Shown here one piece after another: positions 3,564 to 14,942 of a stretch of DNA of 32,000 nucleotides. The notes beneath the pieces are model-generated. The model searched no databases and was not told where the DNA came from. It saw nothing but the letters and a program-made list of their open reading frames with translations. Every line of letters begins with the position of its first letter. The stretch's first letter is position 1. The position numbers and the translations under genes are program-made. This DNA is from Thermococcus kodakarensis KOD1 (lineage in GTDB: Archaea > Methanobacteriota_B > Thermococci > Thermococcales > Thermococcaceae). The DNA lies in contig NC_006624.1 in the NCBI RefSeq assembly GCF_000009965.1, forward strand, positions 2,040,001-2,072,000. Direction: 5' to 3'.

Positions 3564-3780
3564 GGTATCTCACCTCTAACTTCTCTCCTGATGTATGTCT
3601 CGTTGGGACTCTTTTTAACTCTATCCATCCCAGCAGAAACAGGTTTGGGTTTTGGACAATTTCTATCTAATGCACAAGTTTATCATCCGTTGATTCACAA
3701 TGGTCTTCAAACTCAACTTCGAAACACTTATTAACCTTTTTGACGTTGGATATATTGGCACTACAATGGAGGGGTCAATA

Positions 3781-4530
3781 ATGAGGATTGAAATAAAACT
3801 CCGACCCGCTGAGGTGGGCACAATTCTTCCGTTTAACTACAACTACGAGGTCTATTCTCAGCTGCTTGAGAAGGTCTATCTGGTTTCTCCCGAACTTGGA
3901 AAGGAGGTTGAATCTAGTGGTGTTGACTACTTCACGTTCTCAAGGATAATGGTCAGGAAGAGGGAGCTCATTCCCGAGGCTGGCATTAGAGTTCTCTCCG
4001 ATGACGTTTCTCTCTACGTCTCCTCCCATTCCGCCGATGTCATCCATGCCATCGCCGAGGGCTTTCTCGATGACCCCCTCCTGAAGATTAAGGATGCCAC
4101 TTTTATTGCAGATGACGTTAAGGTTCTGAAGGAGCCCGAACTTAAAGGTCCCGTTCTCTTCTCAACGCTCAGTCCGATCCTCGTTAGGACGGTTAAGTTC
4201 GTCAACGGCAGGATGAAGGTGTGGGACCTCTATCCCGACGATGAAATGTTCTTTGACAAGCTCAGAAAGATAATGCTCATGCGCTATTCGAGCATTTACG
4301 GCAGAATGCCCGAAAACAAGGAGTTCAAAATTGAGGTTCTCAAGTTTAAGCCCGTCCGGATTCTCGTTAGGGATACCTACTACAGGAGCTCCCTTATGGT
4401 CTTCAAGTACTCTGGCTCACCCGAGCTGGCCTGGCTGGGATATGAAACGGGGTTTGGTGAAAAGACTCGCTACGGCTTTGGCATGGTTAAAGTAATTGAC
4501 TCAGAGCAAGGGCAAGAAGGCCAAGAATGA
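3781..4530 (+). CDS. cas6: Cas6-family RAMP protein, stand-alone (no array or other cas genes in window); possibly non-catalytic
   Basis: 249 aa from ATG 3781 (GGAGGGG SD 7 nt upstream; the track ORF starts 81 nt earlier at 3700). The C-terminal glycine-rich RAMP loop GYETGFGEKTRYGFGMVKV is very close to the Pyrococcus furiosus Cas6 C-terminus GYEVGFGEKNSLGFGMVKV as I remember it. The N-terminus (MRIEIKL.P....ILPFNYNY) also resembles it. First His is residue 83. Confidence 0.8.
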   Translation: MRIEIKLRPAEVGTILPFNYNYEVYSQLLEKVYLVSPELGKEVESSGVDYFTFSRIMVRKRELIPEAGIRVLSDDVSLYVSSHSADVIHAIAEGFLDDPLLKIKDATFIADDVKVLKEPELKGPVLFSTLSPILVRTVKFVNGRMKVWDLYPDDEMFFDKLRKIMLMRYSSIYGRMPENKEFKIEVLKFKPVRILVRDTYYRSSLMVFKYSGSPELAWLGYETGFGEKTRYGFGMVKVIDSEQGQEGQE

Positions 4531-8465: not shown

Positions 8466-8831
8466 TCACTTTTTCATCCTTGAGAGGTAGGCATAGGTCG
8501 CCTCCCTGAAGTTGTTCATTAGGGCATCCAGTATGCTCTTGACGACTTTCTGCTCAAACTCCTCCCTGGTCGTTGTTATTGAGTAAACATACCTCATTCC
8601 ACCCCTTCCGCGCTCCACCGTTCTCTTCAGCAGTCCTTTCTCGCATAGTCTGTTCATCAGTATGCTGACGGTTGATCTTCTGATTTCGGGGTGTTTCCTC
8701 TTCAGCTCTTCATACACCTGCCCAGCAGTCGCGACTTTGAAGCGCCACATAAGCTCCATTATCTCCGCTTCCATCGGTGGAAGAACGGCCTTTATGCCCT
8801 CTTCGGTGAGCTTGAATTCGTGGGGTTCCAT
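8466..8831 (-). CDS. BlaI/MecI/CopY-family winged-helix transcriptional repressor
   Basis: 121 aa. The LPPMEAEIMELMWR...ATAGQVYEEL......RSTVSILMNRLCEKGLLKR pattern is typical of penicillinase-repressor family wHTH. GGAGGAGGG SD. A TATA-like TTTTTATC on the minus strand lies at ~8868-8876. Confidence 0.8.
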   Translation of the reverse strand: MEPHEFKLTEEGIKAVLPPMEAEIMELMWRFKVATAGQVYEELKRKHPEIRRSTVSILMNRLCEKGLLKRTVERGRGGMRYVYSITTTREEFEQKVVKSILDALMNNFREATYAYLSRMKK

Positions 8832-8880
8832 GATGATCCCTCCTCCTATTGGGGAATAGTAAAGAATACGATAAAAACTT

Positions 8881-9876
8881 TTCTAGCAAGCTTTTGGGAA
8901 AAGCTTCACTAAAAAGTTTGAACGTCTTTGTTAGATTGGCTGAGAAATGAGAAATTCTCCTAGTTCACAGGCGGAGTAATGTGGGTTTTCTTCTTTTTAA
9001 CGCCTTTCGGGCGTTATGCTACGAGCAAACCCCTGAAAATTGCTAATTGATGAGAAGAATCACTAAAAAACAGGGCGCTTAAAAGGACATTCCACCTTTG
9101 ATGAAACTTTTCGCCAGCAAGCTTGACCAAAAGCTTATAGCTTTTCTTTGAGGTGGTTTTATTCAGGATTTTCCACTGCTAGCGTGCCTGTTCTTGTAGT
9201 GAGAACATGTTTAGGGGGGAGTTTCCTGGAAAGGTGTTTTCTTTCTTTGACGCCCGAAGGACGTTGATTTAGAGTTAAACACGCGTTAACAGGATGAGTT
9301 TGAGAGTTCTCACATTCGAGACCAGCTGTTTGGTGGGAAAATCACGATGAATTGGGATTCTAAAAAAGAGCTATGAACCTTGATCAAACTTCGCCAGCAA
9401 GCTTTTGGAAAAAGCTTGACTAAAAGGGTTCCCTTCTCCTCAATCTCGCCTGTTAGGGGTGTATGCTCTTATAGAAGGCAAGCTCGCGCGGGTTTAATTC
9501 CAAATCTTCCCGCTAATTGTGATTTTGGCTTTCTTTTTAGTGCTCTTTGGGCACTATACAGTGAGAGAATCCTTTGAATCAGGCCAATTGAAAGTAAACC
9601 CCTTATAAAATGAGCCTGCTTAAAAACGCATACTATTTTTCCGCCAGCGCTGAAGCTTTTGGGAAAAGCTTCACCAAAAGTTTGAATGTCTTTGTGAGAT
9701 TGACTGAGTAAGTAGATTCTCGTGATAAATTTGCAGGGAATTTTGGTTTTTTCTTCTTTTTAACGCCCTTCGGGCGTTATACTGTGAGTAAACCCCCTTA
9801 AAACCGCTAGTTGAGCATTGAGAATCACTGAAAACTCGGTAGTATAAAAAAAGGACATTCCATCTTTGATGAAACT
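8881..9876. repeat. Tandem array of four paralogous non-coding units (A 8881-9109, B 9110-9389, C 9390-9638, D 9639-9876), family unknown
   Basis: Each unit begins with TTC(G)CCAGC plus a palindrome AAGCTTTT-GGN-AAAAGCTT (8888-8906, 9119-9136, 9399-9417, 9653-9671). Each also contains a pyrimidine tract plus a 17-nt hairpin (8999-9015, 9249-9265, 9539-9555, 9762-9778) and ends with an A-rich TATA-like box. A and D align along their full length. There is no credible ORF. Confidence 0.85.
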
Positions 9877-9893
9877 TTGCCCAGCAAAGTTTC
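9871..9893 (-). other. Perfect 10-bp hairpin 2 nt downstream of tRNA-Lys (possible processing/termination element)
   Basis: GAAACTTTGC-CCA-GCAAAGTTTC read directly. It overlaps the partial fifth copy of the array boundary motif. Confidence 0.5.
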
Positions 9894-9895
9894 TA

Positions 9896-9973
9896 TGGCG
9901 GGCCGGGCGGGATTCGAACCCGCGGCCACGGGGTTAAAAGCCCCGCGCTCTAACCAGGCTGAGCTACCGGCCC
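9896..9973 (-). tRNA. tRNA-Lys (anticodon UUU), CCA encoded
   Basis: Manual cloverleaf: acceptor GGGCCGG/CCGGCCC, D stem GCTC/GAGC, anticodon stem CGGGG/CCCCG with loop CTTTTAA, T stem GCGGG/CCCGC with loop TTCGAAT, discriminator G, CCA. Confidence 0.93.
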
Positions 9974-9995
9974 ATACCCGAATCTTTAACCCGAT

Positions 9996-10012
9996 GAAGC
10001 TTTTATAAGCTT
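9996..10012 (-). promoter_or_regulatory. BRE/TATA promoter of tRNA-Lys (AAAGCTTATAAAAGCTTC on the minus strand)
   Basis: TATA core at 10001-10009, centred ~32 nt upstream of the mature tRNA 5' end. This allows a short RNase P-processed leader. Confidence 0.5.
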
Positions 10013-10056
10013 TGCCCTCTGAAGACCAAGGGTTTTATATTGGTGCTCATTAAGCA

Positions 10057-10974
10057 GTGACGGTGGTGACAGTGGCAAAGCTCTCTATAAACCTCTCGGG
10101 TCTGGAGTTTGAGAACCCTCTCATCCTTGCGTCGGGGATAAACGATAAGGTCCCGGAGCAATGGATAAGGGCCCACGAAGAGGGAGCCGGCGGCGTAGTT
10201 ACAAAATCAATTGGAATCGAGCCGAGGAAGGGCTACGACAACCCCACAATCGTCGAACTCCCATATGGGTTAATAAACGCTATGGGCCTCCCAAACCCTG
10301 GATGGAAGGGCTTTCTTGAGATGGTTGAGGGATACAGCTTTGACTTCCCCCTCATCGTGTCCATTTTCGGCGGAACGCCGGAGGAGTTCGCCTTTCTAGC
10401 GGAAAAGCTGAGCGAAGTTGCCGATGCTTTTGAGCTTAATCTGTCCTGCCCTCACGCCAAGGGCTATGGTATGGAGATAGGTCAAAAGCCAGAGAACGTC
10501 TATGCTGTGGTAAAAGCCGTTAAAGACGCCACCGATAAACCAGTCATAGCGAAGCTCACACCCAACATTGACGACATAACCAAGCTCGGCCTAGCCGCTG
10601 AGAACGCTGGAGCCGATGCCGTCTCTGCTATAAACACACTGAAGGCAATCGCGATAGATATCTACGCCAGAAAACCCATACTGAGCAATAAGGTCGGTGG
10701 CTACTCTGGACCTGGCGTTAAGCCCGTTGCCCTGAGGGCTGTCTATGACCTCGCGAGGACGCTTGACATTCCTGTGATCGGAATCGGCGGCATAACGACC
10801 TGGCAGGATGCTGTGGAGTTTCTCTTGGCTGGAGCGTCAGCCCTTCAGATTGGAACCGCAGTTTCCCTTCGGGGCTGGAAGGTGTTCAGAGAGATAAATG
10901 AGGGAATCGAGCGTTACCTTAGGGAAGAAGGGTTTTCGAGCGTAGAGGAGATAGTCGGCTTGGCTCTGGAATAA
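10057..10974 (+). CDS. pyrD: Dihydroorotate dehydrogenase, class 1 catalytic subunit
   Basis: 305 aa. LEFENPLILASG, GAGGVVTKS, NLSCPHA (catalytic Cys), IAKLTPN and IGIGGI motifs. Four in-frame GTGs (10057, 10063, 10066, 10072) and a TATA-like TTTTATATT at 10033-10041 make the exact (possibly leaderless) start uncertain. Confidence 0.9.
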   Translation: MTVVTVAKLSINLSGLEFENPLILASGINDKVPEQWIRAHEEGAGGVVTKSIGIEPRKGYDNPTIVELPYGLINAMGLPNPGWKGFLEMVEGYSFDFPLIVSIFGGTPEEFAFLAEKLSEVADAFELNLSCPHAKGYGMEIGQKPENVYAVVKAVKDATDKPVIAKLTPNIDDITKLGLAAENAGADAVSAINTLKAIAIDIYARKPILSNKVGGYSGPGVKPVALRAVYDLARTLDIPVIGIGGITTWQDAVEFLLAGASALQIGTAVSLRGWKVFREINEGIERYLREEGFSSVEEIVGLALE

Positions 10975-12468: not shown

Positions 12469-14619
12469 CTAACTCGCAATCTCCATGACTAGAAGGATTT
12501 TCGGCACTGTTATCGTTGTCATTCCGTCGGATACGGTTGTTGGTACGTAGTCAATCAAAAGGTAGAATCTGTCGCATTGCTGTATGACTTCTGCCCAGTT
12601 TTCACTGGAGAATGCTGCCATTATCGAGTAATCAACGAGCTTCTGGGCAGTAATGGGGGAGTAGTATAACCAGAAGTATTCGTCGGATAGGTACAACCCC
12701 CATCCCCTACTAAATCCTGGAGGCAAGTATGCATTGGAAGGCTCTCCAGTGGATTTCGTGGATTCCATGTCCTGCTCTGCGAGAGATTTTAACCGGGGAT
12801 CTTCTTTGTACTGGGGGTACAGGAGTAGGAATTTTTCTTTTGCTATTTCCATAATCTGCCTTATGGCCTCTTCGTTTAAGATGTATGCTTTTTCCTTTAG
12901 CTCCTCCCCGCTCCATGTCCAAGTATCTGTAACTTCTGGTTCTCCTCTTGTGTTGAGCCTCACCTCGTAGAAGGTTATGTTAGCTATTATCTTTGAATTA
13001 TTTTTGATAGCCCATGTCCAATAGTAATTACCTATAGGAATTGGGGGCAAATGCTGGTCAAGAACGAATAGTTCCCCCTCTATTTTGACTGCTACTGCAG
13101 CATGGCCAACTTTGGAGTTTTCGAAACTGATATCCAACAGGTAAACCGGAGACACTCCCGAGTCCAAGAGCATTGCCGCTGTTAATATTGCATAATCTCC
13201 GCAGATACCTTTTTTGTAAACAATAATATCGTTTGGGGCGTAAAGTCTCGTTAGGTTATCATAGAGCTCCTTCTGCTCTGATGTTAGCTTTGACCAGTTG
13301 TACACAAGAGCATCAACGTAATCTGCTTTAGTGTACTCATACTCGATATTCTCATCAATCCATTCCAGAATTGCCCAGGCTTTATCCAAAGTTGTGCTGT
13401 ACTTCGTGAAATCCTTTGTAACTGTTCTGAGCTTTTCCCTGAAATACTTGCTTAATCCTGCCTTAAACGCTTCTTCATTATAGGTGTGCCTCCAATCGTA
13501 TAATGGGTCAGTACCCAATTGCCCCTCATATCCATCGGGTAGGTAATCCCCGTCCGTGTCGGGATCTAAGGGGTCAGTCCCGTATAATATTACCTCCTGC
13601 CCATCGTCTAAGCCATCATTATCGCTATCTGGTTTCAATGGATTTGTTTTGTATGTATTGATTTCTTCCCCATCTACAAGCCCATCTTGGTCGCTATCTT
13701 TATTAAGTGGATCCGTTCCCAACGGTAGCTCCTCAGGATCGGATAGTCCGTCTCCGTCGGTATCTAAGGTCAATGGGCTCGTTTTGTACGTTTTAACTTC
13801 ATCAAAGTCGGAAAGTCCATCTTCGTCTGTATCTTTTGAGAGGGGGTTTGTGCTGAATTCGAGTATTTCTTCTGGGTCTGTTAAGCCATCGTTGTCTGTA
13901 TCCGTCTTGTGAGGATCAGAACCCTTCTTTACCTCAAGTGAATCAGAAACCCCATCTCCATCGGTGTCAGGATTTAGGGGATCCGTCATATAAGCGGTTA
14001 CTTCTTGCCCATCAAGGAGACCATCTCCGTCGCTATCTGGATTCAGCGGATCCGTAGAATATCTATTGATTTCGTCTCCATCATTGACTTCATCTTTGTC
14101 GGTATCCGGATTCGTTGGATTTGTTTTGTATATCTGTATCTCTTTAGTGTCCATTAGCCCGTCCTTATCAGTATCGGTTGCTGTTGGATTAGTTTTGTGC
14201 ACCACGACCTCGCTTTTATCGTCAAGTCCGTCCTCATCACTATCTCCAGAGAGAGGGTTGGTTCCGTATGTTTTGACCTCTTCGCCATCTGAAAGACCGT
14301 CATCATCGGTGTCTTGGCTTAGGGGATTCGTTTTGTACTCTGAGATTTCATCTCCATCGGTGAGCCCATCACTGTCGCTGTCTATTCGGGTGGGGCTCGT
14401 TGCATACAACTTAACTTCTGCTCCATCAGTCAGCCCATCCCCGTCCGTGTCAGGATTAAACGGATCAGTGTGGTACTTTGTCAGTTCCTCCACAATACTG
14501 AGGGAGTCATGGTCGTCGTTTTTTATGGCTGCCCCCGCGACAAAAACAAGCATTATAACGGCCATTTCAACTAGATACCTCGCCAATTTACTTCCTCGAG
14601 AATATCCATCCTTTGTCAC
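12469..14619 (-). CDS. Membrane-anchored/secreted protein: 14 thrombospondin type-3-like Ca-binding repeats + transglutaminase-like Cys-protease core + unknown C-terminal domain
   Basis: 716 aa. N-terminal hydrophobic anchor (MAVIMLVFVAGAAI), 14 copies of [TS]NPLxxD[TS]DxDGLxDGxE spaced ~23 aa apart, then GIC473GDYA...GH506AAV...LD521Q (Cys-His-Asp). GTG start with GGTGAT 3 nt upstream; an alternative ATG is at 14565. Confidence 0.8.
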   Translation of the reverse strand: MTKDGYSRGSKLARYLVEMAVIMLVFVAGAAIKNDDHDSLSIVEELTKYHTDPFNPDTDGDGLTDGAEVKLYATSPTRIDSDSDGLTDGDEISEYKTNPLSQDTDDDGLSDGEEVKTYGTNPLSGDSDEDGLDDKSEVVVHKTNPTATDTDKDGLMDTKEIQIYKTNPTNPDTDKDEVNDGDEINRYSTDPLNPDSDGDGLLDGQEVTAYMTDPLNPDTDGDGVSDSLEVKKGSDPHKTDTDNDGLTDPEEILEFSTNPLSKDTDEDGLSDFDEVKTYKTSPLTLDTDGDGLSDPEELPLGTDPLNKDSDQDGLVDGEEINTYKTNPLKPDSDNDGLDDGQEVILYGTDPLDPDTDGDYLPDGYEGQLGTDPLYDWRHTYNEEAFKAGLSKYFREKLRTVTKDFTKYSTTLDKAWAILEWIDENIEYEYTKADYVDALVYNWSKLTSEQKELYDNLTRLYAPNDIIVYKKGICGDYAILTAAMLLDSGVSPVYLLDISFENSKVGHAAVAVKIEGELFVLDQHLPPIPIGNYYWTWAIKNNSKIIANITFYEVRLNTRGEPEVTDTWTWSGEELKEKAYILNEEAIRQIMEIAKEKFLLLYPQYKEDPRLKSLAEQDMESTKSTGEPSNAYLPPGFSRGWGLYLSDEYFWLYYSPITAQKLVDYSIMAAFSSENWAEVIQQCDRFYLLIDYVPTTVSDGMTTITVPKILLVMEIAS
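13498..14481 (-). repeat. Coding tandem periodicity (~69 nt x 14) from the TSP3-like repeats
   Basis: Repeated DTDGDG/DSDSDG/DTDDDG... codon blocks (gtc.gt.tc on the + strand). The approximate boundaries correspond to aa 47-374. Confidence 0.75.
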
Positions 14620-14738
14620 AGAATCACCGATTGTTAATACCTAATTTCAAATTTAAATTTTTTGTAAATGTTAAACGTTATCTTCTGATTGTTAGCAGTG
14701 CCATGTTCAATTTTGGATGGGCCAAACCTACCGCAAGA

Positions 14739-14747
14739 TTTATAAAT
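14739..14747 (+). promoter_or_regulatory. TATA box (TTTATAAAT) for the tRNA-Phe/tRNA-Gly transcription unit
   Basis: A consensus-like archaeal TATA centred ~33 nt upstream of the tRNA-Phe 5' end, with purine-rich CGCAAGA just upstream. Confidence 0.55.
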
Positions 14748-14775
14748 CCCCTTTGTCTCCCTATTTTTGGAGCGT

Positions 14776-14852
14776 GGGGCGGTAGCTCAGCCTGGGAGAG
14801 CGCCGGACTGAAGATCCGGGTGTCGGGGGTTCAAATCCCCCTCGCCCCACCA
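14776..14852 (+). tRNA. tRNA-Phe (anticodon GAA), CCA encoded
   Basis: Manual cloverleaf: acceptor GGGGCGG/TCGCCCC (one G.U), anticodon stem CCGGA/TCCGG with loop CTGAAGA, T arm GGGGG-TTCAAAT-CCCCC, discriminator A, CCA. Confidence 0.93.
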
Positions 14853-14864
14853 CTTTCTTGCAGT

Positions 14865-14942
14865 GCGGTGGTAGTCTAGCCTGGTCTAGGACACCGGCCT
14901 TCCAAGCCGGTGACCCGGGTTCAAATCCCGGCCACCGCACCA
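14865..14942 (+). tRNA. tRNA-Gly (anticodon UCC), CCA encoded
   Basis: Manual cloverleaf: acceptor GCGGTGG/CCACCGC, anticodon stem CCGGC/GCCGG with loop CTTCCAA, T arm CCGGG-TTCAAAT-CCCGG, discriminator A, CCA. It lies 12 nt after tRNA-Phe. Confidence 0.93.

Follow-up and report, generated by a model that had tools for sequence, protein, structure and literature searches.

A structured repeat family of tRNA 3' flanks in Thermococcus, seen from a four-unit array behind tRNA-Lys of T. kodakarensis KOD1

Background

What occupies the kilobase of DNA that follows the tRNA-Lys(UUU) gene of Thermococcus kodakarensis KOD1? The window considered here, which is the whole stretch of 32,000 nucleotides (nt) that was analysed, covers positions 2,040,001 to 2,072,000 of the forward strand of NC_006624.1; coordinates below are window positions. 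A first reading made from the sequence alone (the sequence-only reading) described four tandem units in the gap at 8832-9895 and took them for paralogous small RNA (sRNA) genes. On balance, and with modest confidence, the array is read here as four tandem copies of a Thermococcus-wide, non-autonomous structured repeat which colonises the 3' flanks of tRNA genes and resembles MITEs (transposable elements of the miniature inverted-repeat kind) and the enterobacterial repetitive intergenic consensus (ERIC); the sRNAs would be by-products. A dispersed structured repeat fits better than four paralogous trans-acting sRNA genes, because the position and orientation of the units are tied to the tRNA 3' end throughout the genus and because structure is conserved across a foldback of about 300 nt.

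Results

The array downstream of tRNA-Lys

The gap contains no credible open reading frame (ORF), as had been claimed; the longest has 65 aa and is not conserved. The array lies immediately 3' of tRNA-Lys (TKt43), and begins right past the encoded CCA. Counted from this gene, the units follow each other in the order type I (D), type II (C), type I (B) and type I (A) (Table 1). The boundaries first drawn for four head-to-tail units fall within about 5-20 nt of those of the minus-strand units defined by profile searches. The array is AT-rich (GC content 0.41-0.45); the contrast with its flanks (about 0.50-0.55) is genuine but smaller than first estimated. Two other estimates need correction. Units A and D are 67% identical, not roughly three quarters; and unit C, which had been regarded as a divergent copy, matches the type II profile and is a different type of unit.

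All four boundary palindromes described from the sequence are present. Those of units A and D are exact and that of unit B is a variant; that of unit C has one mismatch. The 19-nt palindrome occurs three times at no more than one mismatch, against 0.01 occurrences expected by chance per window. The 17-nt hairpins are found at all four of their proposed sites, and the double compensatory change in the hairpin of unit C is confirmed.

Table 1. Positions of the array, its structural elements and associated features in the window (BRE, transcription factor B recognition element; TSS, transcription start site).
Feature	Position	Strand	Evidence or remark
tRNA-Lys(UUU), TKt43	9896-9973	-	ARAGORN; Rfam 74 bits; Table S8 of PMC4247193 (2049896-2049973, -)
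Unit D, type I, abuts tRNA-Lys	9645-9895	-	nhmmer E = 4e-38, profile positions 1-308
Unit C, type II, starts GCGCTGGCGGAA	9400-9644 (approx.)	-	type II profile match 9650-9381, E = 2e-19
Unit B, type I, subtype shared with the T. nautili tRNA-Arg unit	9119-9399	-	nhmmer E = 4e-20; sequence comparison
Unit A, type I	8887-9114	-	nhmmer E = 2e-20
Terminal hairpin H1 of unit D, GAAACTTTGC-TGG-GCAAAGTTTC	9871-9893		2 nt past the CCA of tRNA-Lys
Distal terminal palindrome H5 of unit D	9653-9671		equivalents 9399-9417 (C), 9119-9136 (B), 8888-8906 (A)
Central hairpin P4 of unit D	9762-9778		equivalents 9539-9555 (C), 9249-9265 (B), 8999-9015 (A)
Outer stem P3 of unit D	9790-9795 pairs with 9745-9750		encloses P4
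BRE/TATA-like CCAAAAG-TTTGAATG (9674-9688), just outside palindrome D, with orphan TSS 9712	9674-9712	+	Table S6 of PMC4247193
BRE/TATA-like CCAAAAG-CTTATAGC (9127-9141), right arm of palindrome B, with orphan TSS 9165	9127-9165	+	Table S6 of PMC4247193
tRNA-Lys palindromic BRE/TATA promoter, AAAGCTTATAAAAGCTTC (minus strand)	9993-10012	-	published primary TSS 9979 (PMC4247193)
T7 run, 44 nt past the tRNA-Lys 3' end	9846-9852	-	sequence
Predicted BRE/TATA of the BlaI-type regulator gene, AGAAAAG-TTTTTATC	8870-8884	-	directly past unit A; function inferred
tRNA-Phe, TKt44	14776-14852	+	ARAGORN, Rfam; Table S8 of PMC4247193 (2054776-2054852, +)
tRNA-Gly	14865-14942	+	ARAGORN, Rfam

Distribution of the family and its link to tRNA genes

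Types I and II are both present in many Thermococcus genomes, metagenome-assembled genomes (MAGs) and vent metagenome contigs. In KOD1 the array is flanked on the left by a gene for a BlaI/Penicillinase_R-type regulator (8466-8831, minus strand), which is paired with an M48 peptidase gene, and on the right by tRNA-Lys and pyrD. In the T. nautili group (loci L006-L008) the orthologous regulator is preceded by a tRNA-Arg(CCG) of opposite orientation, and the same modules trail that tRNA in its own orientation; the relevant strand is therefore the tRNA strand. A 32-mer which contains hairpin H1, TAGAAACTTTGCTGGGCAAAGTTTCATCAAAG, is identical after the KOD1 tRNA-Lys (minus strand) and the T. nautili tRNA-Arg(CCG).

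A 22-mer core was scanned against one genome per prokaryotic species and found at 11 loci, all of them in Thermococcus MAGs. Six start 6-9 nt past a tRNA (Ile, Met, Arg-GCG, Leu and, twice, Glu), two come at this same distance after an intron-containing tRNA-Trp, and three lie in the second unit of an array. An independent test of tRNA linkage used metagenome contigs which were not chosen by tRNA and were scanned with the distal-end motif of the unit. Among the matches listed, about 33 of 120 loci are real by profile search. In at least 18 contigs (20 loci including three genomic ones), a same-strand tRNA has its 3' end 255-277 nt upstream; in four more contigs, again among the matches listed, the distance is 526-841 nt, corresponding to a second or third unit.

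A census with a type I profile built from ten units gave at least 52 near-full-length type I units. That other tRNA-proximal loci might bear the same modules had already been considered, and they do: 29 of the 52 begin 0-7 nt past a tRNA CCA in tRNA orientation, with at least 19 anticodons represented. The remainder mostly occupy second or third place in an array. The exceptions are a unit which begins where a Cbf5-like gene has its TAG stop codon, a unit 169 nt downstream of the C/D-box sRNA sR36 (L075) with small GC hairpin modules intervening, a unit after a putative small RNA of H/ACA-like appearance (for which Rfam gave no confirmation), and one unit of unassigned context. Several dispersed copies can occur in one genome, as the same MAG carries units at different tRNAs in three cases (L010 and L015; L016 and L017; L013 and L018) and L125 contains two loci. 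A partial type II-like unit is also present in L125 (10310-10510), where it is flanked by two ordinary protein genes and is distant from tRNAs; the family is therefore not strictly limited to the flanks of RNA genes. P. furiosus, Palaeococcus pacificus, T. gorgonarius and T. sp. AM4 were found to have no unit at distances of up to 20 kb from the orthologous regulator, a result which applies to those neighbourhoods only.

The family remains unassigned, as in the sequence-only reading. At both gathering and permissive Rfam thresholds the window scores tRNAs only, and 8700-10100 yields chance-level matches at E values up to 10; nor do the Rfam families, including RtT, HgcC-G and the archaeal C/D and H/ACA sRNAs, match the units at 11 other loci. 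Matches to plasmids or viruses had been envisaged. There are none to the whole array in PLSDB plasmids or INPHARED phages (BLASTN), and none to the terminus motif in IMG/VR. No description of the family or of its palindrome strings was found in the open-access literature, and these tRNA-trailing Thermococcus repeats are apparently undescribed. The closest published hint comes from Cossu et al. 2017 (PMC5495485), where a supplementary remark mentions 'strictly conserved sequences immediately following' two tRNA-Gly genes of T. nautili.

Unit anatomy and conservation of structure

Type I units are about 290 nt long, and units of the family as a whole are non-coding and measure 228-323 nt. Read in tRNA orientation, each is a long imperfect palindrome, the ends of which pair as inverted repeats of about 38 nt. 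The unit opens with a terminal hairpin with 10-bp arms, which exists in two covarying versions, G-AAACTTTGC/GCAAAGTTT-C and C-AAACTTCGC/GCGAAGTTT-G. CATCAAAG comes next and is followed by a subterminal segment of about 18 nt, the inverted repeat of the segment that precedes the distal palindrome. These subterminal pairs covary across subtypes (GTGATTC/GAATCAC, GTAGCTC/GAGCTAC, GGAATGTC/GACATTC, GTGGCTC/GAGCCAC and ATGGTTC/GAACCAC). The central domain is composed of the 6-bp stem P3 (GGGTTY/RAACCC and variants), an internal loop of about 10/10 nt, the GC-rich 7-bp stem P4 and a triloop. The distal palindrome has the form AAGCTTTT-NNN-AAAAGCTT or else repeats the first hairpin type.

The duplex energy of the subterminal arms averages -19.0 kcal/mol with their own partner, compared with -14.5 kcal/mol with partners from other units. 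P3 and P4 were measured by an anchored stem search with a partner-shuffle control. The covariation first noticed in the KOD1 hairpins extends across the units: P4 is 97% paired (93% Watson-Crick and 4% G-U) over 21 distinct stems, against 61% with shuffled partners (maximum 70%). For P3, with 30 distinct stems, the values are 94% Watson-Crick and 2% G-U, against 66% (maximum 72.5%). The triloop reads GAA in 15 units and TTC, the complement, in 10, so that the centre flips and the palindrome persists. Whole units form rod-like folds with a median z of -4.9 (43 of 51 below -3), and unit D is much more stably folded than its shuffles, with z = -5.4 and -5.0 on the two strands. G-U/G-T wobbles are biased to the tRNA-sense strand, both in the subterminal helix (37 of 48) and in whole units (35 of 51).

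The type II profile is related to type I, and at other loci a type II unit is usually the next after a type I unit. Small GC-rich hairpin modules (for example GTTGAGGCTTCGCCTCAAC, GGGGCTTCGCCCC and GGGACGACAGTCCC) lie between large units at L009, L012, L014, L018, L019 and L075; the arrays are therefore mosaic, in the manner of bacterial interspersed mosaic elements (BIMEs).

Turnover and rearrangement at tRNA loci

Median identity is 0.50 between units behind the same tRNA and 0.48 between units behind different tRNAs, so that unit content does not track tRNA identity. Mutual best matches are confined to a Glu/Glu pair, and the most similar units behind different tRNAs are 0.76-0.79 identical (Leu-CAA with Trp; Arg-CCG with Arg-GCG). 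The regulator neighbourhoods were compared using window 8832-9000 and loci L003, L005, L006-L008 and L142. In T. peptonophilus the regulator is 96% identical to that of KOD1, the regulator promoter is identical and the last palindrome is kept; tRNA-Lys is followed by one unit versus four in KOD1, and this unit is 0.36 identical to unit D. L006 and L008 have an identical regulator protein and the same adjacent tRNA but different units. Since dissimilar units stand beside near-identical regulators, unit content is replaced faster than the species diverge. T. stetteri, in which the regulator promoter has the variant form GGGAAAAG-TTTTTATG, and T. gorgonarius both have a bare tRNA, with no unit, at the regulator position.

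The regulator/M48 peptidase pair is preceded by tRNA-Lys in KOD1 and T. peptonophilus, by tRNA-Leu(CAA) in T. stetteri, by tRNA-Glu(UUC) in T. gorgonarius and, in the T. nautili group, by a tRNA-Arg(CCG) of opposite orientation. With the tRNA differing in this way between species, the spot is one where rearrangement breakpoints at tRNA genes have recurred. Chromosome inversions have been reported to break at two different tRNA genes, which are too dissimilar for recombination in vitro (PMC5495485). The repeats may provide the homology for such tRNA-bounded chromosome rearrangements, because near-identical termini of 30-40 bp sit behind tRNAs of different identity; conserved termini behind many different tRNAs are an obvious and testable substrate for inversions that were left unexplained in that study.

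Transcription, promoters and oligo-T runs

Two orphan TSS of the plus strand, 2049165 and 2049712 (window 9165 and 9712), have been mapped in the array (Jaeger et al. 2014, PMC4247193, Table S6). Small-RNA transcription, as proposed in the sequence-only reading, thus has published support inside units B and D; the same orphan list has no TSS for units A and C. Upstream of each start site stands CCAAAAG followed by an 8-nt TATA-like box, the first base of which is 31 nt away from the TSS; the last base of the palindrome lies 29 nt (B) or 41 nt (D) upstream of the TSS. In these two of the four units the spacing agrees with KOD1 promoter geometry, in which the TATA box lies at a median of 23 bp and the BRE at 33 bp from the TSS (PMC4247193). 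Since the RNAs start downstream of the palindrome and 31 nt from a BRE/TATA-like sequence, the palindrome would be promoter DNA and not, as had been suggested, a constant stem-loop 'handle' of an RNA; it lies upstream of both TSS.

The terminal palindromes look like back-to-back BRE/TATA half-sites and may act as promoters. The terminal hairpin arm with its flank, GCAAAG-TTTCATCA, resembles the tRNA promoters at these loci, GCAAAG-TTTATAAA. The palindrome in the tRNA-Lys promoter, AAGCTTTTATAAGCTT, is closely similar to the unit-boundary palindrome AAGCTTTT-GGG-AAAAGCTT; a repeat (D10) joins 9648-9660 with 9992-10004. A-rich 'TATA-like boxes' had been proposed at the unit ends. Three of the four are T6-T7 runs on the tRNA strand (9846-9852, 9362-9367 and 9065-9070). 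Archaeal RNA polymerase terminates at oligo-T, and for this reason the first of these runs is likely to be the terminator of the tRNA-Lys transcript.

Across the KOD1 genome, 23 of 53 unnamed orphan TSS are located no more than 1.2 kb downstream of the 3' end of a tRNA, compared with 1.2 expected under uniform placement. Among these, six are antisense at 184-293 nt and four are on the same strand at 67-85 nt from the tRNA. Inward-firing termini of a first unit would give such recurrent distances, the link being one of position. Promoter-like repeat termini would thereby offer a single structural cause for a published puzzle of KOD1, namely the mostly species-specific orphan sRNA start sites downstream of tRNAs.

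The orphan sRNA start sites of KOD1 cluster behind at least 14 tRNA loci (Tables S6 and S8 of PMC4247193). Several KOD1 tRNAs, among them TKt34 and TKt35, have antisense start sites 26 nt past their 3' end.

Discussion

A proposed mobile structured repeat

If the units are a non-autonomous repeat, they would take up positions at gene 3' ends, those of tRNA genes and, on occasion, those of other small-RNA or protein genes, and would be co-oriented with the upstream gene. Units would be gained, lost and swapped between tRNA loci via their conserved termini, either through a putative enzyme that recognises the hairpins or because the conserved ends recombine with each other. The BRE/TATA-like half-sites at the termini, akin to strong tRNA promoters, could recruit the transcription machinery, and the termini would then fire short inward transcripts, namely the two mapped orphan sRNAs, which presumably have no trans-acting function. 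On the tRNA strand, the T-rich units might provide oligo-T stops for the tRNA transcript.

The units share with MITEs a length below about 600 bp, the lack of coding capacity, terminal inverted repeats and several dispersed copies per genome. They are likewise comparable with the Correia repeat enclosed elements (CREE) of Neisseria, which are also short and non-coding, have terminal inverted repeats and occur in many intergenic copies; further points of likeness to CREE are termini that may act as promoters and transcripts able to fold back via the inverted repeats. Unlike MITEs and CREE, the units have no recognised target-site duplication or partner transposase, are far more divergent (at most 79% identity between loci), have termini that are themselves perfect hairpins as well as a conserved internal stem-loop, occupy a strict position and fixed orientation at the tRNA 3' end, and reside in an archaeal host.

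Several observations weigh against this interpretation. Near-identical copies at different loci were not seen: the best pair of non-orthologous units is 79% identical and the median is 46%, which falls short of the high identity expected among MITE copies. Inspection of the flanks by eye revealed no target-site duplication; the left flanks consist of CCA plus 0-6 nt (TA, TC, TT, CA and others) and the right flanks carry no matching duplication. About 1 Mb of sampled loci yielded neither a transposase nor an autonomous partner, nor any pair of inward-facing termini around a transposase-like or other element-borne gene. A simple MITE does not need to conserve an internal stem-loop. The wobble asymmetry, which a non-autonomous repeat as such does not explain, hints at selection on a single-stranded form of the sense strand, either RNA or single-stranded DNA (ssDNA). 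Strand-biased deamination could also generate it, and it is given little weight accordingly. Lastly, the link between units and the other KOD1 orphan TSS is positional only, because the KOD1 sequence examined is the 32-kb window. The only wide-spaced pair of termini, which delimited a 3.3-kb candidate for an autonomous partner in L125, was rejected; it involves an unrelated partial unit between ordinary host genes.

A more far-reaching proposal is put forward tentatively and is rather doubtful: that the units represent an archaeal element which homes to the 3' ends of tRNA and small-RNA genes in a structure-dependent and strand-specific manner (through a foldback of sense ssDNA or RNA and its terminal hairpins), which supplies the missing homology behind the frequent tRNA-bounded inversions of Thermococcales chromosomes, and which is the source of a large part of the species-specific orphan sRNAs. 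Among known systems, the units also have parallels in the palindrome-associated transposable elements (PATEs) of the IS200/IS605 group and integron attC cassette arrays. Like the units, these have hairpins at both ends, no target duplication, a strand asymmetry suggestive of a single-stranded form and head-to-tail arrays beside a fixed site. The units differ from them in having true inverted repeats beyond the hairpins, a variable left flank and no defined target of 4-5 nt; no TnpA or IntI gene was found near the units and there are no ORFs between them.

Comparison with other structured repeats

As in ERIC (or intergenic repeat units, IRUs) and in the repetitive extragenic palindromes (REPs) and BIMEs of enterobacteria, the units are extragenic imperfect palindromes at the 3' ends of genes. 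They resemble ERIC in that compensatory change keeps the structure, and BIMEs in forming mosaic clusters of palindromic modules with alternating orientation. They have no sequence similarity to ERIC or REP, are two to ten times longer than REP, and differ from both in their strong bias towards tRNA genes; no REP-associated tyrosine transposase (RAYT)-type enzyme has been identified for them, in contrast to REP/BIME. The distal 178-bp tandem repeats of E. coli tyrT, with the RtT RNA (RF00391), are also tandem, directly downstream of a tRNA and a source of small RNAs. However, they duplicate the tRNA 3' end and occur at one locus only, whereas the Thermococcus units lack a tRNA fragment, are dispersed over many tRNAs and have no Rfam match. 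As dispersed repeats, the units would be an archaeal, hyperthermophilic counterpart to the structured intergenic repeats of bacteria, with a target preference (right past the CCA and co-oriented with the tRNA) for which no mechanism has been described.

Other explanations

The main alternative, possible though unlikely, is that the units are modules selected by the host to serve the upstream, highly transcribed RNA gene at its 3' end, as a multi-stop terminator or insulator, as a structured trailer guiding tRNA 3' processing, or as a co-transcribed structured RNA released at the CCA. The co-oriented abutment of units to the CCA would then be functional, and their presence behind sR36 and at the stop codon of a protein gene, the wobble bias to the sense strand and the compensatory conservation of structure all agree with such a role. 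T runs of five or more also show the required polarity, with 81 on the sense (tRNA) strand and 30 on the antisense strand, a 2.7-fold excess. Their position is not conserved as that of a terminator would be, however: only 21 of 51 units have such a run within the first 90 nt, and early runs would end the sense transcript before most of the structure was made. Some tRNAs manage without a unit (Phe and Gly in the window, Glu in T. gorgonarius, Leu in Palaeococcus and Leu in T. stetteri), arrays of up to four units would be superfluous, and close relatives have replaced the content of their units.

The original proposal, in which four paralogous sRNA genes act in trans through a variable body and each possess a separate promoter and oligo-T stop, is less likely still. 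It draws on the two mapped TSS with BRE/TATA-like sequences, on the variable sequence between the conserved modules, and on the consensus promoters that precede most orphan sRNAs in KOD1 (PMC4247193). Against it, the supposed handle is not transcribed, units A and C have no listed TSS, and in unit D the first oligo-T lies about 35-50 nt from the TSS, ahead of the conserved hairpin. Both array RNAs were rated as conserved in T. kodakarensis only (PMC4247193), the array has no similarity to possible plasmid or virus targets in PLSDB or INPHARED, and what is conserved is a set of symmetric DNA palindromes tied to tRNA position.

Scars of repeated integration and excision by tRNA-targeting plasmids or viruses (remnants of attachment sites), or a recent neutral tandem duplication, would suit the head-to-tail arrangement and the use of tRNA genes as integration sites by integrative elements of Thermococcales (PMC5495485), but are highly improbable given that no tRNA 3' fragment is duplicated in the units, that PLSDB, INPHARED and IMG/VR contain no match, that A and D are only 67% alike with C of another type, and that the same unit types occur behind at least 19 other tRNA anticodons in other species.

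Some further candidates were discarded. Replication origin (oriC) or origin recognition box (ORB) repeats do not fit, as there is no cdc6 gene nearby and the motifs are unsuitable. C/D-box sRNAs would require another box spacing, and Rfam is negative. An operator array for the adjacent BlaI-type regulator is contradicted by other species, in which the units go with the tRNA and not with the regulator. Decayed tRNA pseudogenes were considered on account of a lone T-arm-like 15-mer in unit C, which does not fold. The sRk48/52 and sRk49 repeat RNAs of P. abyssi have one copy in T. kodakarensis and other features. The array is not a CRISPR array either; Tandem Repeats Finder (TRF) and a repeat finder detected no periodicity of short (24-48 bp), near-identical direct repeats with unique spacers of similar length between them, and the units measure 230-280 bp and are 60-67% alike.

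Other features of the window

In at least 14 samples, public short-read assemblies of KOD1 in Logan which contain the regulator gene (L001, L002) stop 73 nt upstream of it, at about 8904 and thus within palindrome A; the repeats or hairpins therefore break short-read assemblies. A gene for Cas6, with an N-terminal Cas6_I-A domain and a C-terminal Cas6 domain, is located at 3700-4530. No CRISPR array was found by a tandem-repeat scan of the 32-kb window or by a repeat search of 8700-10100. In a protein of 716 aa (12469-14619), seven bacterial TSP3 repeats are joined to a transglutaminase-like DUF553 domain. The protein is encoded in a second AT-rich stretch (12800-14800, GC content about 0.43-0.47), which adjoins the unit-free tRNA-Phe and tRNA-Gly genes.

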